Origin: an uncultured bacterium
Lineage (GTDB): Bacteria > Patescibacteriota > Patescibacteriia > Magasanikbacterales > GWA2-37-8
Direction of reading: 5' to 3'
NCBI GenBank assembly: GCA_937903605.1
Contig: CALCZC010000007.1
Location: 189,805-253,804 of the forward strand
Length of the DNA: 64,000 nucleotides
A program made the position numbers and the translations under genes. Below are positions 1,900-18,117 of this stretch, one piece after another. The notes under the pieces are model-generated. The model was not told where the DNA came from and searched no databases. It was given only the letters and a program-made list of their open reading frames with translations. The number at the start of each line of letters is the position of its first letter. The first letter of the stretch is position 1.

Positions 1900-1972
1900 G
1901 GGTCGCTAGCTCAGCTGGTAGAGCAGGTCCCTCTTAAGGACAAGGTCCGGAGTTCGAATCTCCGGCGACCCA
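1900..1972 (+). tRNA. tRNA-Lys (anticodon CTT)
   Basis: Hand-folded cloverleaf: acceptor GGGTCGC/GCGACCC, T-arm CGGAG-TTCGAAT-CTCCG, anticodon loop CTCTTAA; no encoded CCA. Confidence 0.75.
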
Positions 1973-1978
1973 CTAAAA

Positions 1979-2010
1979 AATAACTTCTCATTTATGAGGA
2001 GTTATTTTTT
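1979..2010 (+). terminator. Hairpin plus T-run after tRNA-Lys
   Basis: aataacttctcattta tgaggagttatttttt. Confidence 0.5.
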
Positions 2011-2021
2011 ATTATGTTGAG

Positions 2022-2153
2022 CCGGAGATTCGAACAAAGGGGTGGTGGGGAAAGTATTTCCCCACATTACCGAGGAGGAGCTGTTGAGGAACCCGAAGGT
2101 TCCTCAAGGAGGAGGCCAAAGGCCGACGACGTTCGATTCCTCCGGCGACCCAC
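2022..2153. other. tRNA-linked structured module E1
   Basis: Begins with the exact reverse complement of the tRNA-Lys T-loop and 3' T-stem (ccggagattcgaa). Ends with a near-copy of the tRNA 3' end (ttcgattcctccggcgacccac). Internal hairpins; the minus strand reads cUUCGg. Confidence 0.5.
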
Positions 2154-2340
2154 GACGCTTAGCGTCGTTAAAGGAACGCTTAGCGTTCCACAAACCGCTA
2201 AGTATACGAAGGGACGCTCAGCGTCCCACAAACAAAACAATCCTGCGTCAGCGGGATTTTTTTGTTTATACGATTAAGGCGAACTTTTTTGTCATTCCCG
2301 CGAAGGGACGCTGAGCGTTCCGAAGGCGGGAATCCAGTGG
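2153..2340. repeat. Cluster of GC-rich hairpins with 3-nt loops
   Basis: gacgcTTAgcgtc, ggaacgcTTAgcgttcc, gggacgcTCAgcgtccc, gggacgcTGAgcgttcc. Confidence 0.6.
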
Positions 2341-2343
2341 TGA

Positions 2344-2640
2344 TCAAAATGGCAATAATTCGTCGTACAAATCTTTCCATTGTGGATTATTTTCTTCAAT
2401 CAATCTTAATTTCCATTTTCTATTCCATTTTTTAAGATGTTTTTCTCTTGATATGGCATTATCTATATTATCGTAAACTTCATAATATACCAAAATATGT
2501 ACATTGTATTTTTTGGTAAAGCCTTTTATTGTATTACTTTTATGCTCAAAATTTCTTCTAATCAAATCATTGGTTACGCCGGTATATAATGTACCGTTTT
2601 TCTGACTAGCTAAAATATAGACATAATATTGTTTGGACAT
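2344..2640 (-). CDS. GIY-YIG nuclease family protein (UPF0213/YhbQ-like)
   Basis: YYVYILAS...GTLYTGVTNDLIRR...EHK...KKY GIY-YIG core. Confidence 0.75.
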   Translation of the reverse strand: MSKQYYVYILASQKNGTLYTGVTNDLIRRNFEHKSNTIKGFTKKYNVHILVYYEVYDNIDNAISREKHLKKWNRKWKLRLIEENNPQWKDLYDELLPF

Positions 2641-2711
2641 ATATTATACATTAATACTTTCCTGGATCCCCGCCTTTCCCAAAGGGAGGCCTTTGGCCCG
2701 CGGGGATGACA

Positions 2712-2748
2712 ATCAAAAACCGCTCCTATTTATTAGGAACGGTTTTTA
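2712..2748. terminator. Bidirectional hairpin terminator after the giant gene
   Basis: aaaaaccgctcctatttattaggaacggttttt immediately 3' of the 2757 stop. Confidence 0.5.
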
Positions 2749-2756
2749 TTATTTTT

Positions 2757-5700
2757 TTATTCCACAGGAACATCTGCCGGAGTTTCAGCCGGGGCTGCAG
2801 GTTCTTCAGTCGGAGAGGTATCTGGTACCGGTTCTTCTACCGGAGGTGTTTCTTCAACCGGCTCTACCGGCGTTTCAGCCGGAGGCGTTTCTGTTACAGG
2901 TTCTATTGGAGTTTCCGCCGGCGCTTCTATCGGCGCGGATGGCGTGGATTCGCCAGAGCTTTCAATCGGCGGTAAAATTATTTCTTCGTTTATTTTATTA
3001 TAAAAATCTTTTAACGATTCTACCGTGCCGTTTGAACTATAAATTTTCGTATCATCCTCCACTATATAGGCCTGCCAATTAAATATTACACTATCGGTCG
3101 CTTGTTCGGTCAAAGTAATTTCAAATCCGCGAGTCGTGACATTTTGTAATTTCCAACGACCGTCAAAATTGAGAGGGGTAATTCCCATCATCGGTGGTAC
3201 GGCATATTCTCCTTCAAAATCAACTTTCACCGAAATATCTCCGGCCATAATTTGCGCTTGACCCAACAAATTAGTTTCCATTTCTTCAGGGATTTCTTCA
3301 ACAATTTCTTCAGTAGTCAACATCGGGGTTTCCTTTGAATCATCTTGCCATACGCGATAATAATCAATATCTATATATTGCGCCCCGCCTCCGGCTACGG
3401 TATTGTTCATAATCATAGAAGTCAACCCGACAGTCGGAATATTGGTCGTTGCTTGACCGCAATAAAACCAATCCACTCCGTCAGTTGCATCGTTATCAAT
3501 ATAAAAATTTATCTCTCCCGTCCCGTCACCATTACTGGAAACTACTTCTATTTTTGCCACCCCAAATACAGCAGTGTTGATAGCTTGTCCCGCACAATCA
3601 ACAACAGTGGAAGCTCCGGCGCGACGCGAAACACCCTGCCACTCTCCGTTGGTGGTGTTATTGGTAAAATAAACACCGTTTAGAGGGTCTGCAGTTTGAG
3701 CTCGAGACAGATTGCTCAAACCAATTCTAAATCGGATATTGGCAGTAACAGCGGACGGAGAAGCTTTGAAAGTTATGACCGGTAAATTGGCGGTATTAAA
3801 GACAAGATTGGCGGTTCCGGCAGTTGTAATCCCATGATATGCCAAACAAGAGTTGGCGCCATTTGTCGCTTGCTGTCTGCCGATACCGTTTACTCCGTTT
3901 GCCACTGAACTCCAAGTACAAGCCGTATTTTCATCAACTGTGAATTGTTGAAAATCACCCCAAGCATACAAAGTATCTGCAGTCACATTTCCTCTACCGC
4001 GCATAAATTCTTCGCCAAAATAAGAATTTCTAGCAATAAAAGCTCCTGTTTCTAAACTCATCCCAAAATTTTGTGATAAATATTTTGCCTCACCCACAAC
4101 AACTCCATCTGAATTTAGCCAATGTTGTAAAGCTGCAGTTTGTCCAACCATACCCTGAACAGCTAAACCAACATTAGTAGTAGTAGCAGTCAAAATATGA
4201 ACCTGACCGGAAAAAACATTTGTATCATTAGCAAAACCACCAAAGCCTATTTCACCAGTTCTAGCTATTTGCATATCTGAATATTCTGTACTACTACCTA
4301 CGGGCTGACGCTTAATACTCCAATAAGGAGTATCGGCTCTGGTATCTAAACGGAAAATAGCACCAATAGAAGAAGTATTTCTATCCCCCAGCTGAGTAGC
4401 ATTAATACCATAGCTCAATAATGTTCCCCCGACTTCTGAGAATAAACCAGCTTTCCATGTAGAACTGTTGGTTACATTCAAACCAATTAAATCAGTGGAA
4501 CCAGCTCGATTAGGGAAAGCATTTGGACCAATTATCCAACCGTCAGTGCCTGAAGTAATTCTGAAATCTCCTTCGTTCAAACTCAATTTAGAAATAGGGG
4601 TAGACGTCCCAATGCCTATATATCCACCATTGGTTATTCTCATTCTTTCATTTTCCGCTTGCCAACCATCAGTCATAAAAATAAGTGCAGCATCGGTACT
4701 GGTAGATTCATTTATAAAATAAGAACCACCCGGAGCTACAGAGTCCCAAACTGCACTTCCTGGCAAAACACCCGCGAAACCTGGAGTGTCTATGCCATAA
4801 TAACCCAATTGTAAAAATTCAACATCACTCCCAGCTTTTAAATTAAATAAAGCTGTTTTGGTACTACTTCCAGATTTTACCTCTGCAGTAAGACCATTAT
4901 CCGGTTCATAAATTCGCAATTTATAATAACCAATATCCGAAGTTCCTATACCGACATGGCCGTATTGATTTACAATTAATGCTGGTTCAGAAGAACTAGT
5001 CATAATACTCAACAACGGATAAGTGGTTGTGCCGGTAATGGATAACATAGCCCCAGGATCTTGCTGATTAATACCTATTGTACCGGTAGAATTCAAAGTT
5101 AAAACATTGTTAAATAATCCCGCATCATCTACAAAATAAAATATAAATTTATCATCTTGATTATCATCTCTTTTTGAAAGTTGCCAATATTTATTATTTT
5201 GGGTTACAAAATTCAAGTTTGTAGCTCCCGCAATAGTTTTTTGTAAAATTGTCATTGCCGGGCCTGCATTATCTGTCACTACATGCAAAGGTGCTTGAGG
5301 AGTAGTAGTACCGATACCAACAGGACCACCAATCACCATTTTACCTGTGGTAGTAACATCGCCATTTACCTGTAAAGCAGTTGAACTCACTAAACCCGAA
5401 ACCATCAAACCGTTTGATAATTCAAATTGTGTAGCAGAATTATTCCAACGTAGATAATTATTAATGCCATTGTTAAAATAAAAATTATTATTTCCTGCAG
5501 TAGTAAATTGAATATTATCACCAAACAAAACCGGACCGGATAAAGTAGATGTTCCGGTGACCGATAAATTTCCACCTAACTTAGAGTGTCCAACTACTTC
5601 AAATTTTACATTACTACTGGTGGCACTATTTCCTACCACTACTGCATAATCTCCTGTTAAGTCCGGATAAACAACATTAGCGGTCGTAGTTACCCAAATA

Positions 5701-8700
5701 CTACTGCCTCCGCCACCAGATGGCCAAGTATTGCGAGTCACTCCGCCCAAAGTGATGGAATCAGCCACCAAAATATCAGTGGTACTCACTGTGCCTAAAA
5801 CATTGATATTGTTTACAGTCAAATCCGAAATCGTAGTTGTAGCCAAAATTGAATTACCCAAAACATTCAGCGTGCCGTCAATATATACCGAAGAACTGGC
5901 ATAAATAATATCTTTGAACCACACCGGAAGAGTTGTGGAAGTTGTCAAAACATTTCCGCCGTTGTGCGAAGCTAACAACCAGTTGGCGGTCGCCCCGCCG
6001 GCACTCGCCAACAAATTTCCGTTCCAATAAAGATCTCCGCCAATGTTGTAAATAGAGTTGGTGGTAGTGGCTGTGGCCGTATCTCCAATATAAATACCTC
6101 CGTCAACGTGGAGTTTGTTAAGCGGATCATAAAGTGCTTGGCCGATACCCACAAACCCGGTTCCTGCCTGAATAGTCAAAATGTCGTCCCCTTCCGCCCC
6201 GACTGAGTCGTCCCAAAGACGAAAATCCAGAGAACTGGTCGGCATATACCAAGACCAACCATTGTCATAACTACCACTATTCACGCGACGGATATAATGT
6301 CCCGCCTCACCGTTACCATTGGCGACAATGGTAATATAATTACGAGAGCTGGTAGGACTGGAGCTTAAATCAGATCCCCAAACTTCCAAAAGATCATAAG
6401 GTGTGGAAGTGCCTATTCCAAAAGAACCCTCAAATGTGGCAAAAGATTTATTTTGTAAATCACCATGACCGTTACTAATAAAATATTCCACTGTGCCGGA
6501 AACTCCGTCCGCAGTATATCTCACCGGGAAAATATCAGTATCTGTTTTGAACTGGTTGGAAGTCAACACTATATGATCGTTGGCCGTATTGGCGGAGCTA
6601 AGGTAAACATTGTTTTCACTAACCCCCGGACCGGCCCAAGCAAAAGAAGAATTGGTGATTTGCACTCCGGATAAAACAGTGGAACTGTTCACATAAGCCG
6701 GAATCAATTTTACGCTTCCCGGAGCCACAGTCAAAATTGTTGCAAATGCCGAATCAACATAAGTATTAAATCTGGCATTATCATGATAAAAAATCTTAAC
6801 GTTATTTGCCGGAGCAGTGGCATAAATCGGAAAAGTGATTACAGGGTCTTTGATAGTAGCAATACTACGTAAACTTTGATTATCGGTATAAAGCACAGAT
6901 AGATCATCGTCACTGTCATAAGTATTTACAAAAATTTCCGGGTTATAGATATAAGCGTTGGTAATAGTTGAGCTGGTTAGATAAAAAATGGTATTTATTT
7001 TTGTCCCAACAGTATTGGTAGTTTGAGTAAAGTTGTATTTATTGGCGGTAAAACTTTCCAAAGTGCCGTTTTCTTGATAAACCACGGCTTGGATATCTTT
7101 ACTACCGTCCGTATATTTCGCACCCACAGTTACATTTTTCAAAACAGATTTACCTGCGCTTTTTATCTCTACCGCATAATCATCCGTATTTTCCAGATCA
7201 ACCATAGATAAAACACTGCCATAAGTCATATCAAACGTGACTTTGCCTTTGATAAAAGTATTACAACCCATACCTCGAACTACTACAAAATCTTTCATCT
7301 GCAAATCTTCGGTGAAAGTTCCGGCGGAAACTGAAACCGTATAAGGATTGGTAGAAGACGATAAAACCGCGGCCGTATCAATAGCGTTTTGGATGGTTTT
7401 TTTTGCTCTGGCCGTACTGTTGCCATCAAAACTGTCTTTACCGCTCACCGCGTTAACATAAATAATATTACCTTCAATAAGCGCGTCATTAATAACGATT
7501 TCCGACCAAACATTGTGATTATTATTGATATTGCGAAGTTCCATGATACCGTTATTGTCACGGAAACCATATCCTGCTGCTCCGGTCGTAGTGCCAAAAT
7601 TAATATAACGATTTTCTCCTTCAATAAAAACATTACCACTAATTGATAACGGGGCCAAAGGAGTGGAAGTACCGATACCAACATAACCGGCATTACCCCC
7701 GCCGGTTCCAACTATCACCATACTTCTTTGTTCGTCGGTTGGATCAACATCAAAAATAATATCTCCGCCCGAGGCCAATGTCGAAAGTAATAAATCACTG
7801 ACTGAATACAACGCCAAACTGCCGGAAATTCCCGGGAGTCCGTCATTCCAGCCGGAACTCAAGGCTGTCAAACCGCCCAATTTTCCCAAATCGTTATACA
7901 AACTAAATTCCGCAGTAGAAGAAGGACCGGAGTTGTTATTGTGAATAGCCAAATTTAATTCATCATTAGTATCTCCGTATAAATAAAAGGCCTTGCCATT
8001 GACAGTGGTAGTATTTATAGCCACTAAACCGTTTTCATCTATAATCACGCGCTCTGTGCCGGCTGTTTGAAAATGAATTTTGTTTTCATTTGGTGAAGCT
8101 TCGGTTTCCACTTTAGTATCTCCGTCCGCGTCTTGAATATATGTGCTAGTATTACCACCGACAACCGGCGAGCCGTTCCAATAAAGTTGCCCGCCAAGAT
8201 TATAAAGGGTGTAAGAAGTTACTGCCGGAGAAGTACTGCAAATAGACAATCCACCTATTAATGTCAAAGCGTTTTTTGGTGTGGTAGTACCAATACCGAT
8301 AAAACCGCTGCTAGACACAAAAATATTACTGGTCGGCGCCCAAGAATCTCCATCCCAATAAGCAAATTGCCCTTCGGTAACACCAGGATCAACAGCAGTC
8401 AAAGGAACACTATTCATAAGATAACTACCGGTAATATCTATATCTCCGTCAACAGTCAATTGTGAATTGGGAGTGGAAGTACCAATACCGACATTGTCAC
8501 TACTGCCTTGTACAAACAAGGCATAATCATTATCCGGCGTCTTAACTTGAAAATCATAATTTCCACTACTACTGTTAAATATCGCTCCTCCTTGGAAATA
8601 CATCAACGAATTAAACCCATCCAAAGTCATTAATTTATTATCAATCAAACTTTTACCATCACCGGTGTCGTTGTTATAAAAATTAAAAAGCAAATTGGAG

Positions 8701-11700
8701 TTTGTTCCATATTTTGACATCATCCAACCTCGCATACTGGAAGTAGAACCAAATCCATCGGTATCCGAATAAAGATACAATCCGGCAATAGCACTCCTAT
8801 CTCCGCTGATTGCGGATAATTTTGCCTCACTGCTAGTCGCTTGAACTCCGAGCATCGTTCTTTCTCCGGGATTGTCATTAACAAAGATTAAACCATTATT
8901 TCTATAATAATCAGCTTGATAAGATAGTTTCGGAAGAATAGCCATGCCCGTATCAATTTTGATAACATCTTGATTGATATTGGAGTGCCTACCAAATAAA
9001 ACCACCCCTTCTTCTTCAGCCAAAGCGTAAAAATAAACATTGGCCGGATTATTGATGCTAATATCGGCACTGGAAAAAGCTCCGTCGCTCGAAGAAATAT
9101 TTATGGACGAACTGTCTTTTTGATCAATATTCAAAGTGGCCGCTTTCTGCAAATAACTGGCCGTAACTTTGGTAGCGGAATCGTCATTGGTAATAATGTT
9201 ATAATCCAAACCCCACATGTTGGAATAACGAATTTCCGCATAAGATCCGTTTCCTTCTATAAAAAGCCCTGTGCCCAAATCGCTGTTGGATCCGAATTCA
9301 CTGCCAACCATATAAAAAGATGACGAACCTGTCGTACTTTTCAAATGTACAAATCTGTTTTCAACATTTTCCATATAAACATTTTCGACTTGAGCTGCAG
9401 CACCGTTGTCTAAATTCACACCAATATTGCCGATATTATAAAAATCTGATTTGAAAATATTTAACAAGTTGGCTACTTGCATATTTATACCTGTCTCTGT
9501 GTCTATAATCACCAATTCGGAAAAATCCATCCAAACACTGCCGGTATTACTAACTCTAATAGCATCGCAACCGGATGTATTTCGAAAACCGACGGTTTGT
9601 GAACCGTCAATGGTCAACAAACGAATAGAAAAATCATTTTCTTCAGAAAAATTTATTTCAAAAATAGGACCGGGAGAACTGACCAGGTCCGTTGTCGGAC
9701 GAATCATCACCGCTTCTGTACTCATACCTCGAATACTTTTTATGTGAGTACTGGTAACAACCAAAGTAGATGAAACATCATAAACTCCGGGATAAATATT
9801 TATTATAGTGTCATAATCAACACCATTAGCAAAAGCAACAGCGTCTTCCAAATTATCAAAATCTCCCCCGCTTTTGGCCACATTGATGATATGGTCAACT
9901 TTGGTCGAAAAATTATTCCAACCACCACTCGCGTTCTTCCATTGCATCACCCCGGCATTATCGCGAATACCATAACCTACTGTCCCTGTATTATTTCCGA
10001 AATTCAAATACCTATCCGCGCCGGTAATAGAAAGATTGCCATAAACATCCAAAGCGGAAAGAGGAGAAGTGGTACCGATACCGACAGAACCTCCAAAATA
10101 ATTCACAGATGCTGTACCATCGGAATAAATATTAAAATTGGAATTTTGAGCAAAATTTTGTTCTTCGATATAAAGTCCGTACAAACTTCCGATTGTTCCC
10201 GTTCCCGTGCCGCTGGTCGGGTTATTAATTCTCATTCCAAAAGCCGTTCCAATATTTCCTCCTTCTATACCAAAATCTGATTGAATAGCCGAAGCATTGG
10301 AAATAATCCCATTACCTATACCGTTTTCAATATAACCGCTTAAGCCCAAAGCCAATCCTATGTTTCCGCTAAAATTTACATCTCCGGAACCATTAGTCGC
10401 TGTTTGTCCTCTCAATCCGAAAGCAACACCAACACTTCCCGTGGAATTGTCCAACTCGGCAGAAGAAATTTGTCCCAAAATCATGTTAACCGATCCTGAA
10501 CCTTGATGAATAACTTGATTTAAAAGACCGGCGATAACTTCAAAATTATTATTATTACCTTCATTGGTTGTAACACTGAGCAAAGTATTGATTGTTGTAG
10601 AAGCATCTTCTATAGGATCAAGCTCTATACCCATAACATTACCCAAAGTAAAGCCGTCTCCTGAATTTGATAAATTTGTATATTTTTTATAAGAAGCAAA
10701 AACCGAACCGCTTGGAATCTCTGCGGGAAAATTTTCTCCCACCATCAATTGAGTGATCGTGGTGGTGGACAAAGTGGAACTTCCTATAACATTCAAGTTG
10801 TTATTTATTATCAAAGCTCCGGTCATGGTATCGCCTGCAACATTAACCCAATTGTCCGTACCGGAGACCATAAAAGAGGTACTAGTAAAACCACTCCCCA
10901 CCAAACTCGTGCCGTTAAACCAAATAAATTCATTGCTCGCAAAACTGCCGGCATTGGTGCCGCCATTGGCAATCGGCAAAATTCCCGCGATATCGGAAGT
11001 CAGGTTTACTGTTGAAGTAGACCAAACACCGTTGTTAATTTTTACAAAACCTGTCCAACCGCTAGTGTCTTGTCCTGTCCCGCCATAATTGGTCGCAATA
11101 ATATCACCCTGCCATGTACCGGCGGAAATAGTACCAAAAGAAGATGCTCCGGTTAAGATAAGATTGGCAATAGTAGTCGTTGCCATCAGAGTATTTCCGG
11201 TAATGGCTAAATTTCCACTAATACTGGAAGTGGCAGTGCTACTGTTCATGGTTAAGTTTGCACCTGTAAATCCGCCGGATAAAATATTTAAATTCAAATT
11301 GTTATCCAGAGCCAAAAGCGTATTGGCCACAGCAGTGGAAGAAGCATGAAAACCGTCAACTCTGTCGGAATTGAAAGCATACGGATGAGTCGCCAAAATC
11401 ACACGCGGACTGGCTTCGTTGTCACTTTCTATTTTTACCGCCAAATAATAAGTACCTGTGCTAAAATCCAAATAACTCGGAAAAGCGCCGCAAGCACCAA
11501 GATTTACGGTAAAATATCCTTGGGCATCAGGTTGAACTTTGGGACAATTTCCGGAACTGCCGTCATAGACTTCAGTCCAAAGCAAAGGTCCGGCGGAACT
11601 TGGCGTATCTGTAGGAACTCCGGTGTTTGCGTTGTTATAAATAGAAAATTGAATAGTGGTAGAAGTAGTAATCGGCGTTCCTCCGTTATCTCGCAATCTG

Positions 11701-11852
11701 CCTTGGTAATTTATCAGGTTTGGAATAGCTAAAACTTCTTTACCTATAAAAGAAAAAACCGTCACTAACGCAACAAAAAACATGGCTTTCTGTATATTCA
11801 TCTTTAGAAAGTTAACAAGGAGTTTGGATTTTATTCCCCTCCGAATATTCAT
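2757..11852 (-). CDS. Giant (3031 aa) secreted cell-surface protein with beta-helix domains, recurring GIGT(S/T)TP motif and Pro/Glu/Thr-rich C-terminus
   Basis: Uninterrupted 9.1-kb ORF with an N-terminal signal peptide. Two beta-helix cap-like motifs (AVSGKDSFDGNSTARAKKTIQNAIDTA; AKSGGDFDNLEDAVAFANG). At least 8 copies of VGIGTSTP-like motifs. Tail (ETP/VEP)n. Confidence 0.8.
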   Translation of the reverse strand: MNIRRGIKSKLLVNFLKMNIQKAMFFVALVTVFSFIGKEVLAIPNLINYQGRLRDNGGTPITTSTTIQFSIYNNANTGVPTDTPSSAGPLLWTEVYDGSSGNCPKVQPDAQGYFTVNLGACGAFPSYLDFSTGTYYLAVKIESDNEASPRVILATHPYAFNSDRVDGFHASSTAVANTLLALDNNLNLNILSGGFTGANLTMNSSTATSSISGNLAITGNTLMATTTIANLILTGASSFGTISAGTWQGDIIATNYGGTGQDTSGWTGFVKINNGVWSTSTVNLTSDIAGILPIANGGTNAGSFASNEFIWFNGTSLVGSGFTSTSFMVSGTDNWVNVAGDTMTGALIINNNLNVIGSSTLSTTTITQLMVGENFPAEIPSGSVFASYKKYTNLSNSGDGFTLGNVMGIELDPIEDASTTINTLLSVTTNEGNNNNFEVIAGLLNQVIHQGSGSVNMILGQISSAELDNSTGSVGVAFGLRGQTATNGSGDVNFSGNIGLALGLSGYIENGIGNGIISNASAIQSDFGIEGGNIGTAFGMRINNPTSGTGTGTIGSLYGLYIEEQNFAQNSNFNIYSDGTASVNYFGGSVGIGTTSPLSALDVYGNLSITGADRYLNFGNNTGTVGYGIRDNAGVMQWKNASGGWNNFSTKVDHIINVAKSGGDFDNLEDAVAFANGVDYDTIINIYPGVYDVSSTLVVTSTHIKSIRGMSTEAVMIRPTTDLVSSPGPIFEINFSEENDFSIRLLTIDGSQTVGFRNTSGCDAIRVSNTGSVWMDFSELVIIDTETGINMQVANLLNIFKSDFYNIGNIGVNLDNGAAAQVENVYMENVENRFVHLKSTTGSSSFYMVGSEFGSNSDLGTGLFIEGNGSYAEIRYSNMWGLDYNIITNDDSATKVTASYLQKAATLNIDQKDSSSINISSSDGAFSSADISINNPANVYFYALAEEEGVVLFGRHSNINQDVIKIDTGMAILPKLSYQADYYRNNGLIFVNDNPGERTMLGVQATSSEAKLSAISGDRSAIAGLYLYSDTDGFGSTSSMRGWMMSKYGTNSNLLFNFYNNDTGDGKSLIDNKLMTLDGFNSLMYFQGGAIFNSSSGNYDFQVKTPDNDYALFVQGSSDNVGIGTSTPNSQLTVDGDIDITGSYLMNSVPLTAVDPGVTEGQFAYWDGDSWAPTSNIFVSSSGFIGIGTTTPKNALTLIGGLSICSTSPAVTSYTLYNLGGQLYWNGSPVVGGNTSTYIQDADGDTKVETEASPNENKIHFQTAGTERVIIDENGLVAINTTTVNGKAFYLYGDTNDELNLAIHNNNSGPSSTAEFSLYNDLGKLGGLTALSSGWNDGLPGISGSLALYSVSDLLLSTLASGGDIIFDVDPTDEQRSMVIVGTGGGNAGYVGIGTSTPLAPLSISGNVFIEGENRYINFGTTTGAAGYGFRDNNGIMELRNINNNHNVWSEIVINDALIEGNIIYVNAVSGKDSFDGNSTARAKKTIQNAIDTAAVLSSSTNPYTVSVSAGTFTEDLQMKDFVVVRGMGCNTFIKGKVTFDMTYGSVLSMVDLENTDDYAVEIKSAGKSVLKNVTVGAKYTDGSKDIQAVVYQENGTLESFTANKYNFTQTTNTVGTKINTIFYLTSSTITNAYIYNPEIFVNTYDSDDDLSVLYTDNQSLRSIATIKDPVITFPIYATAPANNVKIFYHDNARFNTYVDSAFATILTVAPGSVKLIPAYVNSSTVLSGVQITNSSFAWAGPGVSENNVYLSSANTANDHIVLTSNQFKTDTDIFPVRYTADGVSGTVEYFISNGHGDLQNKSFATFEGSFGIGTSTPYDLLEVWGSDLSSSPTSSRNYITIVANGNGEAGHYIRRVNSGSYDNGWSWYMPTSSLDFRLWDDSVGAEGDDILTIQAGTGFVGIGQALYDPLNKLHVDGGIYIGDTATATTTNSIYNIGGDLYWNGNLLASAGGATANWLLASHNGGNVLTTSTTLPVWFKDIIYASSSVYIDGTLNVLGNSILATTTISDLTVNNINVLGTVSTTDILVADSITLGGVTRNTWPSGGGGSSIWVTTTANVVYPDLTGDYAVVVGNSATSSNVKFEVVGHSKLGGNLSVTGTSTLSGPVLFGDNIQFTTAGNNNFYFNNGINNYLRWNNSATQFELSNGLMVSGLVSSTALQVNGDVTTTGKMVIGGPVGIGTTTPQAPLHVVTDNAGPAMTILQKTIAGATNLNFVTQNNKYWQLSKRDDNQDDKFIFYFVDDAGLFNNVLTLNSTGTIGINQQDPGAMLSITGTTTYPLLSIMTSSSEPALIVNQYGHVGIGTSDIGYYKLRIYEPDNGLTAEVKSGSSTKTALFNLKAGSDVEFLQLGYYGIDTPGFAGVLPGSAVWDSVAPGGSYFINESTSTDAALIFMTDGWQAENERMRITNGGYIGIGTSTPISKLSLNEGDFRITSGTDGWIIGPNAFPNRAGSTDLIGLNVTNSSTWKAGLFSEVGGTLLSYGINATQLGDRNTSSIGAIFRLDTRADTPYWSIKRQPVGSSTEYSDMQIARTGEIGFGGFANDTNVFSGQVHILTATTTNVGLAVQGMVGQTAALQHWLNSDGVVVGEAKYLSQNFGMSLETGAFIARNSYFGEEFMRGRGNVTADTLYAWGDFQQFTVDENTACTWSSVANGVNGIGRQQATNGANSCLAYHGITTAGTANLVFNTANLPVITFKASPSAVTANIRFRIGLSNLSRAQTADPLNGVYFTNNTTNGEWQGVSRRAGASTVVDCAGQAINTAVFGVAKIEVVSSNGDGTGEINFYIDNDATDGVDWFYCGQATTNIPTVGLTSMIMNNTVAGGGAQYIDIDYYRVWQDDSKETPMLTTEEIVEEIPEEMETNLLGQAQIMAGDISVKVDFEGEYAVPPMMGITPLNFDGRWKLQNVTTRGFEITLTEQATDSVIFNWQAYIVEDDTKIYSSNGTVESLKDFYNKINEEIILPPIESSGESTPSAPIEAPAETPIEPVTETPPAETPVEPVEETPPVEEPVPDTSPTEEPAAPAETPADVPVE

Positions 11853-12000
11853 AATGTTTTTACTATATTATTATACCATATATACAATTTTCAAAAAACC
11901 TCTCAGCTAGCCAAAATAAATAAACTGTGGATAACTTGTGTATAAACAAAAAACTCGCTTTTTTCGCGAGTTTTAATTCAAAAATATAAATTCAAAAATC

Positions 12001-12717
12001 CTAAATATTAGCGAGCGCTGTTATAGTAATTACCCCGTTATAACTACCTGATTTTTGATCTATTGGCGCGCTGGCACGATAATCAACCACAGTCACGGTA
12101 GTGCCCCAATTACATGTCGGACAATTCATAAATTGCGAATTTACAGTTGGAAATCCGCCATATTTAGCATTTAGAAGAGTGTCATCACTACCCCACCAAG
12201 CATTGTTATAATTGGAAGTCGTGCCTGATTGTTTTACACGAAAAGACAGATTGTTTCCCGGTGTATTTGTGGCATTGCCGGAACCGCTCGGATTCCAAGA
12301 AACATAATCCGGGAAATCAACCGATGAATCAACGGTCAAATCTACAGTTGAACTTACATCCTCTCTTTTGACTGACAAATTATATCCACTTAATGAACCG
12401 GGTATAGTAACATAAACCGCAGAACTGGCAAAAGTTGGTATATTTGGCAATATTTCTCCAAAATTTACAGTCGGCTCAACAGTAATTACCATCATAGGAA
12501 ATTCCATTACCAATCCGTGATCATAAATATAGTTTGTACTGGTGGCTCTACCTACCGCCGGATCACCAGCTCCACCTTTTAATTGAAAACCACTGGAAGT
12601 AGCGTCGTGATAGATAGTGCCGTAAGTTTGTCTATCAATTTGATTCTGCGCCAAAACTACCTGAGAAGTTATCAGGCACGATATCAAAATAACGGCTAAT
12701 TTTAGAGAAAAAGACAT
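12001..12717 (-). CDS. Secreted protein, WxL-like C-terminus (paralog A)
   Basis: Signal peptide; C-terminal SYNGVITITALANI; paralogous to 12964..13650. Confidence 0.7.
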   Translation of the reverse strand: MSFSLKLAVILISCLITSQVVLAQNQIDRQTYGTIYHDATSSGFQLKGGAGDPAVGRATSTNYIYDHGLVMEFPMMVITVEPTVNFGEILPNIPTFASSAVYVTIPGSLSGYNLSVKREDVSSTVDLTVDSSVDFPDYVSWNPSGSGNATNTPGNNLSFRVKQSGTTSNYNNAWWGSDDTLLNAKYGGFPTVNSQFMNCPTCNWGTTVTVVDYRASAPIDQKSGSYNGVITITALANI

Positions 12718-12721
12718 AAAA

Positions 12722-12860
12722 AAACAAACTCAAATCTCAAAGTTCAAATCTCAAAACTTTTGTATTGATTGGCAATATTCAAATTATCCGTCCCGCCAAG
12801 CGGGACTCCAAACTTTTGACTTTTGAGTTTTGAATTTTGATATTTTATATTATACCTCAT
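12722..12860. promoter_or_regulatory. Divergent promoter region with long imperfect palindrome around a GC hairpin
   Basis: Arms ctcaaatctcaaagttcaaatctcaaaacttt / aaacttttgacttttgagttttgaattttga flank gtcccgccaagcgggac. Confidence 0.4.
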
Positions 12861-12963
12861 TTTACCGTTATTCGTAAAACTAATTACTTATCCACATATT
12901 TTTCGTTTTTATATTTTTTCCCTATTATCAAAAAAATCAAAAAATAGTATAATACCTTGTGGA

Positions 12964-13650
12964 ATGATTTTAACATTAAATCATTTCAATAAATTAATAA
13001 ATTTATTTATTAACCTAATTTATTTTATGAGGAGGAAACTTCTTTCTTTCATCGTCCTTATGGCGATGTTTACCGCTTATAGCGGATATTTAAATCTCGG
13101 CGTGGCCAAAGCCGCCGAAGACAGTGAACAACAAACTATAGTTTTGTATGTCACTTCAACCATCACTTTAACATTGGCGACTTCCACGATAAATCTCGGC
13201 ACTTTAACTCCGGGAACTCCTGTCAACGGCAATACTTCTTTGACAGTCACTACCAACGATCATAATGGTTTCAACTTACAAGTAAAAAGAGACGACGCTG
13301 ATTCCACTTTGGATTTGGATGCTGATGGCACTGTCAATTTTCCAGATGCTACAGCTTGGAATTACTCTGCGCCAAATGCCACAACTTCTCCTGAAGTAGG
13401 AGCCAATCTTTCTTTCCGTTTGATGGTGGCCGGTACTGACGCCGCTTTGCAAAATACAGGTTTTTGGGGAACTGACGGAGCCAAACTTTGGGCCGGTTTT
13501 CCAACTACCAATCAACGCGTAACAGGTATCAGCAGTTGGGTTGGAGCAGCTCAAAATGTCGCTTACGAATTTAGAGCCGATGCTCCGGCTACTCAGGAAT
13601 CCGGTCAATACACAGGTACTATTACCTTTACCGCGATTACCAATCCATAA
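12964..13650 (+). CDS. Secreted protein, WxL-like C-terminus (paralog B); true start probably MRRKLL near 13030
   Basis: Signal peptide; C-terminal YTGTITFTAITNP resembles the WxL distal motif YxxxITWxLxxxP. Confidence 0.7.
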   Translation: MILTLNHFNKLINLFINLIYFMRRKLLSFIVLMAMFTAYSGYLNLGVAKAAEDSEQQTIVLYVTSTITLTLATSTINLGTLTPGTPVNGNTSLTVTTNDHNGFNLQVKRDDADSTLDLDADGTVNFPDATAWNYSAPNATTSPEVGANLSFRLMVAGTDAALQNTGFWGTDGAKLWAGFPTTNQRVTGISSWVGAAQNVAYEFRADAPATQESGQYTGTITFTAITNP

Positions 13651-13673
13651 ATTAACAATTTAATTTCATTTTT

Positions 13674-14627
13674 ATGAAAAGCATGTTGAACTGGAGGGTT
13701 CTTACGGTTTTTTTCTTAGTTGTTTTTTGTACGCTTTTCAAAATAGAAGCTGCGTCCGCGCAGCTTTCTATTTCTATCTATCCTCTTTCCTTTAAAGCAC
13801 AGGTAAATCCTGGAGATACCTGGAGCGGCAGCGTCACGGTTATAAACCCCAATGATTATCCTATTTCCGTTCGTCCTGAAAGAGAAAATCTTGTTGGAGG
13901 CGCGGAAGGTGAAGTTAGTTTAATAGGAGAAACTGATCAGAACTACGGTCTAGCTTCTTGGATTAAATACAACTCTGAAAAAGACTTCGTTTTAGCGGCC
14001 GGAGAAAGAAGAAAAATAGATTTTGTGATGAATGTGCCAAAAAACGCCCAACCTGGCGGACATTACGGTGCGGTTCTTTTTCGCGGCACGGAAATAAATA
14101 AAAAGCCATCCGGAGAAAGCGGACTTGGTGTAGCCGGGCGCGTAGGATCGGTAATGCTCTTTGAAGTCAGTGGAGACGTGCAAAAAACCGGAGAAATTTT
14201 TTCCGTTGAAACAAAGAAATTTATCGCTCACGGACCTCTTGATCTGACTTTTAAAGTCAAGAATACTGGTAATACTTTTTTCTTACCTGAAGGAAAAGTT
14301 GAATTCAAACATTTTTGGAAAAAACTTGAAACTACTTGGGAACCGCGCGTGGTATTTCCGGGATATGAAAGAACATTCAAAACAACTCTTGATAAAAAAT
14401 ATCTTTTTGGTCCTGTCAAAGCCACTATTTTGGCCAAAATGAGCGACGGAGCGGATTTAACCCCGATTTCCGTGACTGTTTGGGCATGGCCTTGGAAAGA
14501 AACATTGATCTTACTCGGTATTATCGCCGTGCTTTGGTTATTGAAAATTTGGTTGCTAAAAAACTTCAAAATTGTTAAAATAGAAAAAACGGAAAATACA
14601 GACGAAAATAAAAAAGGAGATGCCTAA
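13674..14627 (+). CDS. Secreted beta-rich protein with C-terminal TM anchor (DufA/DUF916-DUF3324-like topology)
   Basis: Signal peptide, roughly 270-aa ectodomain, C-terminal helix LILLGIIAVLWLLKIWLL, short charged tail. Confidence 0.6.
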   Translation: MKSMLNWRVLTVFFLVVFCTLFKIEAASAQLSISIYPLSFKAQVNPGDTWSGSVTVINPNDYPISVRPERENLVGGAEGEVSLIGETDQNYGLASWIKYNSEKDFVLAAGERRKIDFVMNVPKNAQPGGHYGAVLFRGTEINKKPSGESGLGVAGRVGSVMLFEVSGDVQKTGEIFSVETKKFIAHGPLDLTFKVKNTGNTFFLPEGKVEFKHFWKKLETTWEPRVVFPGYERTFKTTLDKKYLFGPVKATILAKMSDGADLTPISVTVWAWPWKETLILLGIIAVLWLLKIWLLKNFKIVKIEKTENTDENKKGDA

Positions 14628-15723
14628 ACGATTGTTAAAATCAATCTTTGCGACACAAGCCTCGAAATATTTCCTTTTGGGGCTTGTGTTTTTATTGTCC
14701 GCTCTGCCGGCTTTGGTTTTTGGCGCCGTAGTCACACAAAATGTAACCGTTTCCATCGATAATAGCTCTTATCACTGTTCCAACAAAACTCAAGATTATG
14801 ATGAAACCGGTGTGGATTGTGGCGGAACGCTTTGCGGAACTTGCGGAACACATTGTACAAACGGAATTAAAGATTTTGACGAAACAGGCGTTGATTGCGG
14901 AGGGTCTTTGTGTCCTTCTTGCGGCGGGGGTGGAGGCGGTGGCGGGGGTGGAGGGGGTTCTCTGCCGGTTTTAGTTTCTTCAGTAAACTTTTCCGGTTTT
15001 GCTTATCCGAATGCCAAAATATTTTTTCTTCGCGACGGAATTTTGGTTAATACCTTTTTTGCTTCTTCAACCGGAACTTTTCAATATTTGTTAAATTCCA
15101 TTACTGCCGGTAATTATCGTTACACCTTTTACGCTTCCGACTCAAGAGGAGGATATTCTTCTTCTTTGGTTTTTCCTTTAACCGTGGTTGCCGGAAATTC
15201 TTATCAAGTAAGCAACATTTTGATTCCTCCGACCTTATATTTCAATTCTCAAGAAATAAAGCGCGGTGACAGTTTAGAATTTTATGGTCAAAGCGCACCA
15301 AACTCAATTCTTCTGCTGGAATTAAAAAATTCTGTTTCCGGAAATACTTCCGCTTTTCAAACCATCGCCGATTCTTCGGGAAATTATTCTTATCTTTTAG
15401 AAACCTTGGGGTTGCCGGAAGGAAATTATGAAATCAAAATCAAAATGAAAATCGGTCTTATTGAAAGCGCTTTTAGCAATTCTTTTCCTTTTACGATCGG
15501 CGTCAAAACAGTGGAAAAACCCGTTCCTACGAGTAAATGTCCGGCCAAAGGCGATCTTAACGGCGATTGTAGAGTAAATTTGGTTGATTTTTCCATTGCC
15601 GCTTATTGGTACAAACGCACGGTCGCCACAAGTTTTATCAATACGGAAAATTCACAACTCAACGGCGATGATATTATCAACTTGATAGATTTTAGTATTT
15701 TGGCTTATTATTGGACCGGGTAG
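14620..15723 (+). CDS. Secreted Cys-rich repeat protein with poly-Gly linker and C-terminal dockerin-like repeats
   Basis: Two YDETGVDCGG.LC..CG repeats; a Gly12 run; GDLNGDCRVNLVDFSIAAY and QLNGDDIINLIDFSILAYYW match the dockerin Ca-binding repeat consensus. Confidence 0.7.
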   Translation: MPKRLLKSIFATQASKYFLLGLVFLLSALPALVFGAVVTQNVTVSIDNSSYHCSNKTQDYDETGVDCGGTLCGTCGTHCTNGIKDFDETGVDCGGSLCPSCGGGGGGGGGGGGSLPVLVSSVNFSGFAYPNAKIFFLRDGILVNTFFASSTGTFQYLLNSITAGNYRYTFYASDSRGGYSSSLVFPLTVVAGNSYQVSNILIPPTLYFNSQEIKRGDSLEFYGQSAPNSILLLELKNSVSGNTSAFQTIADSSGNYSYLLETLGLPEGNYEIKIKMKIGLIESAFSNSFPFTIGVKTVEKPVPTSKCPAKGDLNGDCRVNLVDFSIAAYWYKRTVATSFINTENSQLNGDDIINLIDFSILAYYWTG

Positions 15724-15727
15724 TGAA

Positions 15728-15778
15728 AGTTCGGCTAGGCGCCCTTAGCGCCCTATTGCCGAAGGCAAGCCGAACTTC
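15728..15778. repeat. GC-rich three-stem structured element
   Basis: agttcggc ... gccgaact encloses ggcgcccttagcgcc and ttgccgaaggcaa. Confidence 0.45.
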
Positions 15779-15810
15779 TACTACCCGGTGGACCGGGATA
15801 ATGTAAAGAT

Positions 15811-16098
15811 ATGTTTTTTTACGTTTATATTATACAAAGTTTAAAAAATAAAAGCCTTTATGTTGGCTATACCCAAGATTTAATAAAAAGATTAGACCAA
15901 CACAATGATGGCAATAGTACGTATACAAAAAAATATATACCTTGGCAATTAATTCACTACGAAGCTTACCGCAATGAAATAGATGCAAAACGCAGAGAAA
16001 AATATCTCAAAACAAATCAGGGGAGCCGTTTATTGAAGCGTATGTTAAAAGAATACTTTTATAATCAAAATTCCAATGATTCAGATTCAAAAACTTAA
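15811..16098 (+). CDS. GIY-YIG nuclease family protein (second copy)
   Basis: FYVYIIQS...SLYVGYTQDLIKRLDQHN...KKY...EKYLK. Confidence 0.75.
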   Translation: MFFYVYIIQSLKNKSLYVGYTQDLIKRLDQHNDGNSTYTKKYIPWQLIHYEAYRNEIDAKRREKYLKTNQGSRLLKRMLKEYFYNQNSNDSDSKT

Positions 16099-17014
16099 AA
16101 ATCACCTCTTGATACCAATGGTTATTTTGGGAGCTTTCTTTGTAATTACACCTACTTTGGCTGCGGAATTTTTTGCCACAGCTTCCAATCATAATCCTGA
16201 AATCGGTGAATACATACAAGTGGACTTATTTTTGGATACTGCCAAAGAAGAAATAAACGCTTTGGAAGCCGCTGTTATTTTTCCTGAAAATTTGTTGGAT
16301 CTGGTGGATTTTTCTTATGGAAATTCGGTTATCAATTATTGGGTGGAAAAACCTCACCAAACTGACGAACATAATAAAATATTTTTTTCAGGTATTACTC
16401 CCGGCGGATTCAACGAAAACTCAGCTTATTTGTTATCTTTGATTTTTAAAACCAAAAATACCGGCCGCGGTGAAATACTTTTTTCTCAAAATAAAACTTT
16501 GAAAAACAACGGCTTTGGCACGGAAACGAAGAGTTCGGGAAAAAAACTTTCTTTCAATGTTCAAACCGGTCTCAAAGGTGATGATACGGAAAATATTTAT
16601 AAAAATTTAGACAAAATACCTCCGGAAAACTTTGATCTTTTTGTTTATGAAGATAATAATATCGCTTCCGACAAGAAAGCTTTGATTTTTGACACGATAG
16701 ACAAAGATTCCGGGGTATCCCGTTATGAAGTATTAGAAGAAAAAACCGGACACTTGTTAGGTTGGGAATTTAAAATAGGACGCTGGACTCCGGCAACCAG
16801 CCCTTATGTTTTGCAAGATCAACAAATGCGTAGCAATATCTATGTCAAAGCCATAGACAGAGCCGGAAATGAACGAATTGTCTCATTAATGACCGTTCAG
16901 ACTCCGCGATGGTATACGAATTTGAATTTTTGGATTATAATAATAACTGTAATCATACTTCTCATTTTATCCAGGAGGGCTTATGAGAGATTTTCGCGGA
17001 AAAATAAAAATTAA
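16076..17014 (+). CDS. Cohesin-like domain surface protein with C-terminal TM anchor
   Basis: Signal peptide; IGEYIQVDLFLDTAKEEINALEAAVIFPENLLDLVDFSYG pattern typical of a cohesin beta-sandwich; C-terminal TM WIIIITVIILLIL. Confidence 0.55.
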   Translation: MIQIQKLKNHLLIPMVILGAFFVITPTLAAEFFATASNHNPEIGEYIQVDLFLDTAKEEINALEAAVIFPENLLDLVDFSYGNSVINYWVEKPHQTDEHNKIFFSGITPGGFNENSAYLLSLIFKTKNTGRGEILFSQNKTLKNNGFGTETKSSGKKLSFNVQTGLKGDDTENIYKNLDKIPPENFDLFVYEDNNIASDKKALIFDTIDKDSGVSRYEVLEEKTGHLLGWEFKIGRWTPATSPYVLQDQQMRSNIYVKAIDRAGNERIVSLMTVQTPRWYTNLNFWIIIITVIILLILSRRAYERFSRKNKN

Positions 17015-17798: not shown

Positions 17799-17882
17799 AA
17801 AATACCGACCCGCTCAATTCAAAAGAGCGGGTTTTTTATACTTGATTTTTTTATCTAAATCTGCTACACTTTTGGCAATATT

Positions 17883-17954
17883 GCCCCTATAGTTTAATGG
17901 ATAAAATATCAGGCTTCGAACCTGAGGATGGGAGTTCGATTCTCTCTGGGGGCA
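17883..17954 (+). tRNA. tRNA-Arg (anticodon TCG)
   Basis: Hand-folded: acceptor GCCCCTA/TGGGGGC, anticodon stem TCAGG/CCTGA with loop CTTCGAA, T-arm GGGAG-TTCGATT-CTCTC. Confidence 0.7.
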
Positions 17955-17990
17955 CAAAAAATATTCGATTTAATATCAAATATTTTTTTA

Positions 17991-18117
17991 AGAGAGAATC
18001 GAATTAGGGAAGGGAGAAACCGGGAGGTTTCTCTTTGCGGAGGAAAGGTATTGGAAAACCCGAAGGTTTTTCAAAGAGGAGCGAAGCGACGATGTGAGTC
18101 TTCTCTCTGGGGGCACA
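17991..18117. other. tRNA-linked structured module E2
   Basis: Begins with agagagaatcgaa, the exact reverse complement of the tRNA-Arg T-loop and 3' T-stem. Ends with tctctctgggggcaca. Shares GAGGAG, the ccgaagg hairpin and the cgacga(c/t)g core with E1. Confidence 0.5.

Follow-up and report, generated by a model that had tools for sequence, protein, structure and literature searches.

Structured modules with target-matched ends behind tRNA genes of Patescibacteria: candidate recombination sites of integrase-less mobile cassettes

INTRODUCTION

Genes for tRNA and transfer-messenger RNA (tmRNA) are classic landing sites for mobile DNA, and each known pair of integrase and phage attachment site (attP) is tied to one target. 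Other described systems recombine a single strand with a duplex. The CTX phage is described as integrating by the exchange of one strand pair, between its single-stranded DNA and double-stranded host DNA (PMC3442271), and integron integrases are described as recombining single-stranded with double-stranded partners (PMC4792948). Here, we analyze a stretch of 64,000 nucleotides (nt) from an uncultured patescibacterium (assembly GCA_937903605.1, contig CALCZC010000007.1, positions 189,805 to 253,804), hereafter called the window. It carries two copies, E1 and E2, of a structured module of ~130 nt, each located behind a tRNA gene.

An earlier note on this DNA, made from the sequence alone, had described these modules as starting with the antisense of the tRNA T-arm and ending with a copy of the tRNA 3' end, and had taken them for a functional RNA of the minus strand. 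Our favoured reading, held with about even confidence, is a different one: E1 and E2 are copies of a family of mobile cassettes devoid of an integrase, which insert at the 3' ends of tRNA and tmRNA genes, and the module is their recombination (attachment) site.

RESULTS

Two modules with ends derived from the adjacent tRNA

According to ARAGORN and Rfam, the window contains exactly two tRNA genes, tRNA-Lys(ctt) at 1900-1973 and tRNA-Arg(tcg) at 17883-17955, both on the plus strand. The tRNA-Lys gene is located downstream of rpmF-nusB-rnc. Each tRNA is directly followed by a hairpin and then by the module. By local BLAST, the start of E1 (2021-2035, designated X') is the exact 15-nt reverse complement of 1952-1966, and its end (2140-2153, within the segment designated X) is an exact 14-nt direct copy of 1960-1973. 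In E2, the corresponding matches are 17991-18003, the exact 13-nt reverse complement of 17935-17947, and 18101-18118, an exact 18-nt direct copy of 17940-17957. The antisense start and the direct-copy end claimed in the earlier note are thus exact at both tRNAs (15/14 and 13/18 nt) and above chance. The ordered blocks which it saw in both interiors are confirmed by alignment: the interiors of E1 and E2 are alignable, with the blocks in the same order.

Gain and loss of the unit among close relatives

The RNase III of the window is identical to a protein assigned by NCBI to Candidatus Magasanikbacteria, the patescibacterial group from which the window derives. The rnc-tRNA-Lys locus of relatives was retrieved via RNase III homologues. 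In locus L001 (RNase III 90% identical), tRNA-Lys is directly followed by 'aacaaaacaatcctgcgtcagcgggattttttt', which in the window begins only at 2231. Compared to L001, the 257 nt at 1974-2230 are extra in the window, and these include small palindromes at 2154-2230. Loci L006 and L007 encode the same RNase III protein, and L006 has an additional 180 nt exactly after '...cgacccac', with flanks identical at 307/310 and 149/150 positions. This 180-nt insertion consists of a terminator hairpin, X', the core, and X. L009 is identical to the window over 250/250 nt ending at X and carries, at 2153|2154, an additional unit of 193 nt (type B, see below). The two tRNA genes, Lys and Arg(tcg), lie side by side in L004 and L011-L014, which are more distant relatives, and no module is present there.

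Inserted units have a length of 180-257 nt and lack open reading frames (ORFs). Their right boundary is the tRNA-end copy X itself, and T-loop differences between tRNA and X (L006 vs. L007, and in the window) restrict the crossover to the last ~14 nt. Gains and losses of a unit of ~180 nt are precise and occur at the repeated tRNA end. Units also stack in tandem: arrays and decayed older units are found in L006, L009, L017, L018, and L034. The distribution among near-identical strains is sporadic and the element is thus dispensable.

Integrase-carrying elements are classically recognised by a direct repeat of the tRNA 3' end, tRNA and tmRNA genes are their classic targets, and degenerate older units exist. 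All this would suit inert scars, the decayed left and right attachment sites (attL/attR) of ordinary prophages or islands that carried an integrase. However, it is the ~180-nt unit itself that is the indel between near-identical strains. Its size and order are constant behind at least 14 tRNAs with a core up to ~90% identical across tRNA species, covariation and compensatory changes are seen, and neither integrase fragments nor viral relatives were found. We consider inert scars very unlikely. The earlier note had listed decayed att sites of tRNA-targeting elements as an alternative to its RNA. That alternative came closer to the truth, but the sites are not decayed: it is the unit itself that is gained and lost, its structure is under selection, and no integrase was found.

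A module family behind many tRNA genes

Two collections were scanned with core patterns. The collection of 185,579 genomes yielded 16 loci, 14 of which are real, and the JGI metagenome collection yielded 18 loci, all real (34 hits in total, 32 real). A covariance model was then built from 25 distinct family copies. In the window it detects the two modules, at 122.9 and 93.6 bits, plus one marginal match (53935-54002, minus strand, 14.7 bits, E 0.095, 28% G+C), which is probably due to chance; in the fetched loci it has 37 hits. The two scans and the model together reveal ~40 further copies in Patescibacteria, so that the search outside the window did return homologous modules beside tRNA genes. 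All host contigs belong to Patescibacteria as judged by gene content and similarity, and the other taxon labels on several bins are taken as mislabels.

At least 14 tRNA species carry modules: Lys(ctt, ttt), Arg(tcg, gcg), Val, His, Gln(ctg, ttg), Leu, Asp, Ala, Pro, Ser, and Gly. One further copy is found between smpB and infC, where it follows the 3' end of a tmRNA-like gene. All copies linked to tRNA or tmRNA are on the tRNA strand, ~10-60 nt downstream. That copies always lie 3' of tRNAs, a point which the earlier note wanted checked, holds for these Patescibacteria loci, with the tmRNA-like gene as an additional host; it fails for L023, where the module is in a non-tRNA context.

Two of the tRNA genes concerned are unusual. 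The gene upstream of the module in L039 (1114-1265) ends tRNA-like (gggttcgaatcccacccccggagca) but is not called by ARAGORN, and in L029 (755-1008) ARAGORN calls two tRNA-Asp models of overlapping type. These may be intron-containing tRNA genes as reported for Patescibacteria (PMC13011429). The introns reported there are group I introns in the anticodon loop and are unrelated to the modules.

Ends are re-matched to each tRNA

Where a tRNA is followed by a module, exact direct repeats have a median length of 14 nt and exact inverted repeats one of 12 nt; where it is not, both medians are 6 nt. The longest matches in shuffled downstream sequence are 7-12 nt. Across the family, the flanking repeat covers 5-20 exact nt, and ~55 nt in L024. 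The mean pairing energy of X' is -22.5 kcal/mol with its own tRNA and -13.6 kcal/mol with other tRNAs. In the subfamily associated with Arg, Leu, and Asp, X' is still a perfect T-loop complement though X cannot pair with that part. The same core is thus found behind many different tRNAs with re-matched ends, and a conserved family tailored to each tRNA, as claimed in the earlier note, is supported by ~40 more copies. As counted from the alignment, the core is ~90% identical between the Lys copy of L006 and the Arg copy of L002 while the ends differ, and ends are therefore exchanged much faster than the core diverges.

The long flanking repeat of L024 (2790-2900, minus strand, tRNA-Gln(ttg)) takes in the whole terminator. 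Within it, a 13-nt hairpin core is exactly inverted between the copies (cctttgaaaaagg vs. cctttttcaaagg), which represents a hairpin-loop flip.

Such tailored ends could also belong to a programmable guide. The module, as RNA or folded DNA, would then direct a recombinase encoded in trans, similar to an IS110 bridge RNA: X' would pair with the tRNA-sense strand at T-loop and T-stem, the acceptor copy in X with the opposite strand just downstream, and swapping ~15 nt would retarget the element. In favour of this, the scaffold is conserved while its swapped ends fit the respective target at no fewer than 14 tRNAs and a tmRNA-like gene, and the positions addressed by the two customised segments are neighbours on opposite strands. 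The fit of X' is closer to the adjacent tRNA than to the X of the element, the perfect T-loop complement in the Arg/Leu/Asp group persists where X cannot pair, and no integrase was found in cis. On the other hand, a compensatory change in L031 (see below) keeps the pairing of X' with X while leaving the tRNA sequence, the examined loci contain no ORF of DEDD or IS110 type, the search for a promoter was negative while a terminator directly precedes the module, and the two internal guide loops that bridge RNAs have are missing from its architecture. We regard guided integration as a minor possibility.

Fold, covariation, and layout of the modules

Modules of the kind found in the window (type A) fold into a closing stem, P1, in which X' pairs with X around three hairpins. 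P1 consists of two helices with a bulge and a mismatch and is capped by the three hairpins. The module hairpins are under selection for pairing. In hairpin 1, changes on both sides are seen in 6 of 7 pairs, in hairpin 2 in 3 pairs, and hairpin 3 always pairs despite wholly different sequences and lengths, from gcgaagc to gtccgccagctggcggac; the hairpins thus show the compensatory changes that the earlier note wanted looked for. In L031, a T-loop position is altered in X and its partner in X' is altered to match, both departing from the tRNA sequence. Because tRNAs almost always keep A at this position, this is a true compensatory change in P1. Type A has no complement of the acceptor 3' strand upstream of X', and its 3' tail is unpaired in the folds, whereas types B and C (see below) pair part of the acceptor copy.

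The last 14-22 nt of tRNA-Lys recur at the end of the module. The unit at this tRNA is opened by a terminator-like hairpin of 17 pairs plus a T run (1974-2011), which also ends the tRNA-Lys transcript. A spacer (2012-2020) leads to X' (2021-2035), which is antisense to the T-loop and the 3' strand of the T-stem and forms the 5' strand of P1. Hairpin 1 (2041-2071) is variable in sequence throughout the family while its pairing is retained. Hairpin 2 (ttgaggaaccCGAAggttcctcaa, 2084-2107) and its purine-rich conserved flanks, GAGGAGGAG and AAGGAGGAGG, are the most conserved part of the family. Hairpin 3 (ggccaaaggcc, 2114-2124) is followed by the conserved CGACGAC. X (2131-2153), the 3' strand of P1, starts with a T-loop near-copy that is the element's own and continues with the exact 14-nt tRNA-Lys end (2140-2153). 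Outside the module, at 2154-2230, are the G+C-rich small palindromes gacgcttagcgtc, ggaacgcttagcgttcc, and gggacgctcagcgtccc, each ending with ...ccac, which represent a separate repeat. The original tRNA-Lys trailer and terminator (2231-2262, 35/36 identical to L001) have been pushed downstream by the insertions. The downstream block 'cgtcccacaaa...atcc', attributed to the module in the earlier note, is not part of it: at tRNA-Lys it consists of the palindromic insertions (2154-2230) together with this original trailer and terminator.

At tRNA-Arg, the target of E2, the second unit is opened by an A+T-rich hairpin and spacer (17956-17990), self-complementary at 17956-17988. Here, the order of hairpin and module noted earlier for both tRNAs holds, but the hairpin is weak, A+T-rich, and not called by the terminator scan. 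X' (17991-18003) is antisense to the T-loop and the 3' strand of the T-stem, being exact against 17935-17947. The E2 core (18011-18087) comprises hairpin 1 (18011-18036), GGAGGAAAGG, hairpin 2 (18051-18074), AAAGAGGAG, and the mini-hairpin 3, gcgaagc (18081-18087). A cgacgatg motif, the first base of which (18087) is shared with hairpin 3, and X follow at 18088-18118. In this X, the subfamily motif tgagtc replaces the T-loop and precedes the exact 18-nt tRNA-Arg end. All features of both units are on the plus strand.

Strand and transcription signals

The tRNA-sense strand has the better fold in 26 of 28 copies, the mean difference being 5.4 kcal/mol. Wobbles in well-paired stem parts are 9 G.T vs. 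3 A.C on the plus strand, many G.T pairs also occur at the base of hairpin 1, and the hairpin-1 tetraloop is of the GNRA class on the plus strand in 16 of 21 cases. In the window, no promoter-like (sigma-70-like) site for a module was found on either strand. Terminator-like hairpins bracket E1, the one at tRNA-Lys being called by the terminator scan on the plus strand only. Nearly all copies have a terminator hairpin between the upstream gene and the module, and most copies are also followed by a terminator. An upstream terminator together with the lack of a promoter-like site fits a role at the DNA level. Two copies have no preceding terminator, the one in L031 after tRNA-Ala and a diverged one in L024 between tRNA-Gly and tRNA-Thr.

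The minus-strand RNA proposed in the earlier note, with a 5' end antisense to the 3' end of its cognate tRNA, draws on the hairpin-2 loop, which reads cUUCGg on that strand, although this sequence was required by the scan patterns and is therefore not independent evidence; moreover, the tRNA-Lys hairpin has an A run on its left and a T run on its right, and with this symmetry could terminate a minus transcript, though the scan calls only the plus strand. This strand nevertheless folds worse in 26 of 28 copies, the stem wobbles would turn into A.C mismatches, and the hairpin-1 loops would lose their GNRA class. No promoter-like site was found, and since the element ends at X, a promoter would need locus-specific, unrelated flanking DNA. 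With fold, wobbles, loops, and promoter search all pointing away from it, we consider a minus-strand RNA extremely improbable.

A stable structured RNA of the plus strand fares better. Produced by read-through or else transcribed together with the tRNA, it would have a cellular role, mobility being secondary; tRNA 3' processing or folding, a protein sponge (GGA, Shine-Dalgarno-like tracts), or a mimic of the tRNA top half come to mind. The better fold in 26 of 28 copies, the 16 of 21 GNRA tetraloops, the covarying stems, the two copies inside tRNA transcription units without a preceding terminator, the terminator after most copies, and the minihelix-like pairing of acceptor and T-stem copy in types B and C would all suit such an RNA. 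Yet the element is sporadic among near-identical strains and thus dispensable, and most copies have an upstream terminator and no promoter. Type A lacks the 5' acceptor strand, so that it cannot mimic a substrate of RNase P, RNase Z, or the CCA-adding enzyme; for this type, the plus-strand mimic of a tRNA 3' minihelix that was suggested earlier falls for the same lack. Finally, the unrelated cores A, B, and C have only the end logic in common, which points to an insertion mechanism. A plus-strand RNA with a cellular role is in our view possible, if unlikely. A small ORF in the modules is ruled out by stop codons and by indels of variable length.

Searches for a recombinase, phages, and described families

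By Pfam, no integrase or transposase is encoded among ~30 ORFs of the window and ~25 ORFs of other loci; the scanned ORFs of the window code for housekeeping proteins, a GIY-YIG protein, surface proteins, and a UvrD helicase. Among the ORFs scanned there is no tyrosine recombinase, and in none of the loci examined is there an ORF of DEDD or IS110 type. All-against-all clustering of the ORFs revealed no recurrent protein family beside the modules except for syntenic housekeeping genes. In three scans, viral contigs gave zero matches to the core patterns of type A and type B, and a phage origin was rejected, as no viral contig carries either core.

With Rfam 15, tRNA is the sole family to reach its gathering score, both in the window and in four loci, and at E<=10 the two modules have only chance-level matches, well below gathering scores. 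The absence of the module from Rfam is thus confirmed at both levels. Matches resembling miRNAs merely reflect the long hairpin formed by tRNA T-arm, terminator, and X'. By eye, a hammerhead-like CUGAUGA/GAAA core and an RNase-P-like motif, GAGGAAAG, were noticed and dismissed, as their cores do not fit and Rfam is silent. In the full-text literature searched we found no description of such tRNA-tailored modules, and the earlier note likewise knew of no family with this architecture.

Other module types, cargo, and non-tRNA contexts

The additional 193-nt unit in L009 represents type B. Its core is unrelated to that of type A while its ends follow the same X'/X logic: it has an antisense T-stem segment inside and an exact copy of the local tRNA-Lys 3' end at its end, and the antisense segment follows the T-stem in three tRNA-Lys alleles (tggga, ggagg, and ggaga). 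Type C (L018 140-300, L040 11603-11750) is located between tRNA-Gln(ctg) and a type-A unit. Its 10-bp stem, ggacctggat/atccaggtcc, pairs the whole T-stem and acceptor copy, GAUGAGAAG replaces the T-loop complement, and the G+C-rich core is unrelated. There are thus at least two unrelated core types with a common end logic. Target-matched ends are the constant feature across types, which implicates the insertion mechanism.

Cargo is rare. In the fetched loci, no cargo unit bounded by tRNA-end repeats more than 400 nt apart was found. The 4.3-kb contig L021 carries the 3' part of a tRNA-Gln, a terminator, an 838-aa ORF with DUF4238 and SEC-C domains, a terminator, the module, and a degenerate Gln-type X. 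In L023, a module follows an Avs4 defence gene and a 219-aa ORF, with no tRNA nearby. L049 has the same Avs4 and 219-aa ORF genes without the module, and L051 has CBASS instead. The left end of the L023 island was sought via a neighbouring S24/LexA-like gene, and no tRNA is present there. Homologues of this gene occur across many Patescibacteria, next to a defence hotspot with either Avs4 or CBASS.

This hotspot lies downstream of the S24/LexA-like gene (L049 9001-15300, L051 9001-13400, and L023 on the minus strand). In L051, a DUF2188 gene and a CBASS system (SAVED, SMODS) replace Avs4 and the 219-aa ORF. Restriction-modification genes, a ParB-methylase, and a gene with an SNase domain are found upstream. 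A conserved non-coding element of ~150 nt (ctgtcgcatttgtcgcatttt...gggtacttaacccgactacaccg), the same one in the three loci, comes after the cargo. In L051 (13400-13590), this element is followed by a hairpin, then 'gggtggattcgaac', an X'-like antisense T-arm, then different hairpins and the end '...ccgaatctctcca'; this may be a further module type in a non-tRNA context.

Neighbouring repeats and genes

The gap between tRNA-Lys and tRNA-Arg(tcg) is 26-270 nt in relatives (L002, L004, L011) and 16 kb in the window. The region between the tRNAs (1974-17882) is a large variable region, with a GIY-YIG gene, a repetitive surface-type protein of 3031 aa (2757-11852), and several ORFs which have no Pfam match or only weak Dockerin or WxL-interacting matches. 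The GIY-YIG gene (2344-2640, minus strand), immediately downstream of the tRNA-Lys array, codes for a stand-alone domain protein of 98 aa, and just past its 3' end is a hairpin, cattcccgcgaagg...cgggaatc.

A G+C-rich palindromic unit of ~17-20 nt (gacgcttagcgttccgaagg or gggacgctcagcgtccc) is inserted into CCGAAGG hairpin loops, sometimes twice in tandem, and is flanked by repeated GAAGG (window 2154-2228 and 2295-2325; L034 735-790; L002 4456-4500). It occurs in the tail hairpin by the GIY-YIG gene, within an older module of L034, and right behind X at both the Lys and the Arg locus, and looks like a separate miniature mobile repeat.

In L008 (4808-5274), the RNase III of which is identical to that of the window, a gene for a 23S_rRNA_IVP four-helix-bundle protein is inserted between rnc and tRNA-Lys, flanked by short repeats of the type 'ttgaaagt/caaaagtcaaaa'. 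Repeats of this type also occur without the gene, after E2 (window 18215-18262) and after the module array of L034 (905-935).

DISCUSSION

The gain and loss of the unit, the end logic common to unrelated cores, and the selected fold lead us to read the module as an attachment or recombination site. By analogy to the cassette attachment site of integrons (attC) and to the attP of the CTX phage, this site probably acts as folded DNA. The unit is laid out as terminator hairpin, optional cargo, X', three-hairpin core with purine-rich joins, and X, and a circular or looped-out form would read X-terminator-(cargo)-X'-core. X would provide the homology for the crossover and restore the tRNA 3' end, and from such a circle a crossover anywhere in the exact repeat would reproduce the observed structure. 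By pairing with X, X' would rebuild a target-like duplex within one DNA strand, with two short helices, a bulge between them, and a branched loop as cap. A recombinase encoded elsewhere in the genome would then exchange the folded site with the tRNA gene. In every unit, X' and X are ~95-105 nt apart at the distal end, in constant orientation; an inverted site ~100 nt from a hybrid site at the distal end would be the layout expected for an exchange between a folded single strand and a duplex. The re-matching of X' to a new tRNA may possibly proceed by template switching, seeded on the universal T-loop complement TCGAAC.

Two other origins of the ends were rejected. A miniature inverted-repeat transposable element (MITE) residing in the palindromic TTCGAA of a displaced T-loop does not fit the tRNA-Arg case: its T-loop is not palindromic, and X' is unambiguously a reverse complement there. 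For snap-back copying of the tRNA trailer, the spacer before X' would have to be complementary to the acceptor strand, which it is not.

Several observations weigh against the module being a recombination site that acts as folded DNA. The examined loci offer no candidate for the recombinase of the unit, an excised or circular form was not seen, and the single-stranded DNA stage is purely inferred. In type A, the acceptor-strand part of X is unpaired; X' overall fits the adjacent tRNA better than its own X; and in the Arg/Leu/Asp subfamily X has no T-loop copy, so that P1 is limited to its T-stem part. Loops of the GNRA type, wobbles of the G.U type, and conserved purine tracts in single-stranded regions are as typical of RNA as of DNA, and the L031 and L024 copies, having no preceding terminator, must be co-transcribed with the tRNA. 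With respect to cargo, X of L021, the sole tRNA-linked case documented, has 4 mismatches, and the module ends of L023 do not match their neighbour in its non-tRNA context.

If the module is indeed a recombination site, it would represent an integron-like cassette system that docks at tRNA ends, in bacteria whose genomes are very small and in which few mobile elements are known. With a mere change of its two ends, one conserved structured core of ~130 nt suits 14 or more tRNA species and a tmRNA-like gene. The system could explain the movement of accessory genes, one unit being associated with a gene of unknown function and another being located beside an Avs4 defence gene. We assign a small likelihood to the bolder notion that the module is a programmable targeting device, by which the tRNA gene is recognised through base pairing and cassettes without a recombinase are inserted by one encoded elsewhere. 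Should this be true, it would amount to natural guide-directed cassette integration in ultra-small bacteria, a system that differs from both CRISPR-associated transposons and IS110 bridge RNAs, and some of the inserted cassettes may bring defence genes; target choice by base pairing would be a new principle of programmable integration. In practical terms, the tRNA-end fragments left by the units could pass for prophage att sites, and strain-level indels caused by the units can break metagenome assemblies.

Comparison with known systems

The most extensive similarity is to integrons. Like attC, the module is a site of ~60-140 nt in which the fold is conserved over the sequence, an imperfect inverted repeat with two short bulged helices and a variable, sometimes branched terminal structure, and one strand alone folds well; the general description of attC as an imperfect one-strand palindrome with bulges and a variable terminus applies to it. 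It is located at the 3' end of an optional cargo gene, in the same orientation, and, as with integron cassettes, units without their own recombinase form arrays at one anchor site. The anchors, however, are many tRNA and tmRNA 3' ends and not a single attI by intI, the outer helix is re-matched for each target, most units are gene-free, and no integron integrase was found at the module loci. The attC consensus RYYYAAC/GTTRRRY is not present: the sole AAC...GTT box, TTCGAAC/GTTCGAW, fits at 5/7 positions, is on the inner and not the outer side of the stem, and is missing from X of the Arg/Leu/Asp subfamily.

With the attP of the CTX phage, the module shares two inverted target-like sites ~90-100 nt apart at one end of the integrated element, and a single-strand fold would rebuild a duplex resembling the chromosomal target. 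As with other Xer-dependent elements (PMC3442271), CTX relies on a host-encoded recombinase and needs none of its own; none was found in the module units either. The target of CTX is dif, used via XerCD, whereas that of the module is the 3' end of a tRNA or tmRNA gene. In addition, the CTX phage measures 7 kb and passes through a proven single-stranded stage, whereas most units are ~180 nt long.

Integrative elements and islands that target tRNA genes, integrase-less derivatives mobilised in cis included, also insert at the tRNA or tmRNA 3' end, have a flanking direct repeat, keep the gene intact by a copy carried on the element, and accrete in tandem; cargo is seen in one case each, defence-related (L023) and of unknown function (L021). 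In contrast to such islands, the unit has no integrase in cis and its mobile form is only ~180 nt. It adds the inverted T-arm copy X' and a conserved, covarying hairpin core, and one core family serves at least 14 targets where an ordinary integrase/attP pair serves one.

MITEs, REPINs, and the Correia and ERIC repeats are likewise short, non-coding, hairpin-forming, multi-copy, and non-autonomous. In contrast to MITEs, the module is confined to the vicinity of tRNA and tmRNA genes in one orientation, its terminal repeats are derived from the target and vary per site, and the flanking repeat is the tRNA end, with a length of 10-55 nt, and not a short target duplication of fixed length.

IS110 bridge RNAs (PMC11208160) resemble the module in being a structured scaffold at the element end with short, target-matched, swappable segments. 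They differ in that the module has no adjacent IS110 recombinase gene and its unit no ORF. Its matched segments are terminal and pair with each other instead of residing in two internal loops, its internal junction strands are conserved and not customised, and both segments address one site, not target and donor. Taken together, the element is best placed among site-specific mobile DNA, and it could prove categorically new if its targeting is by base pairing.

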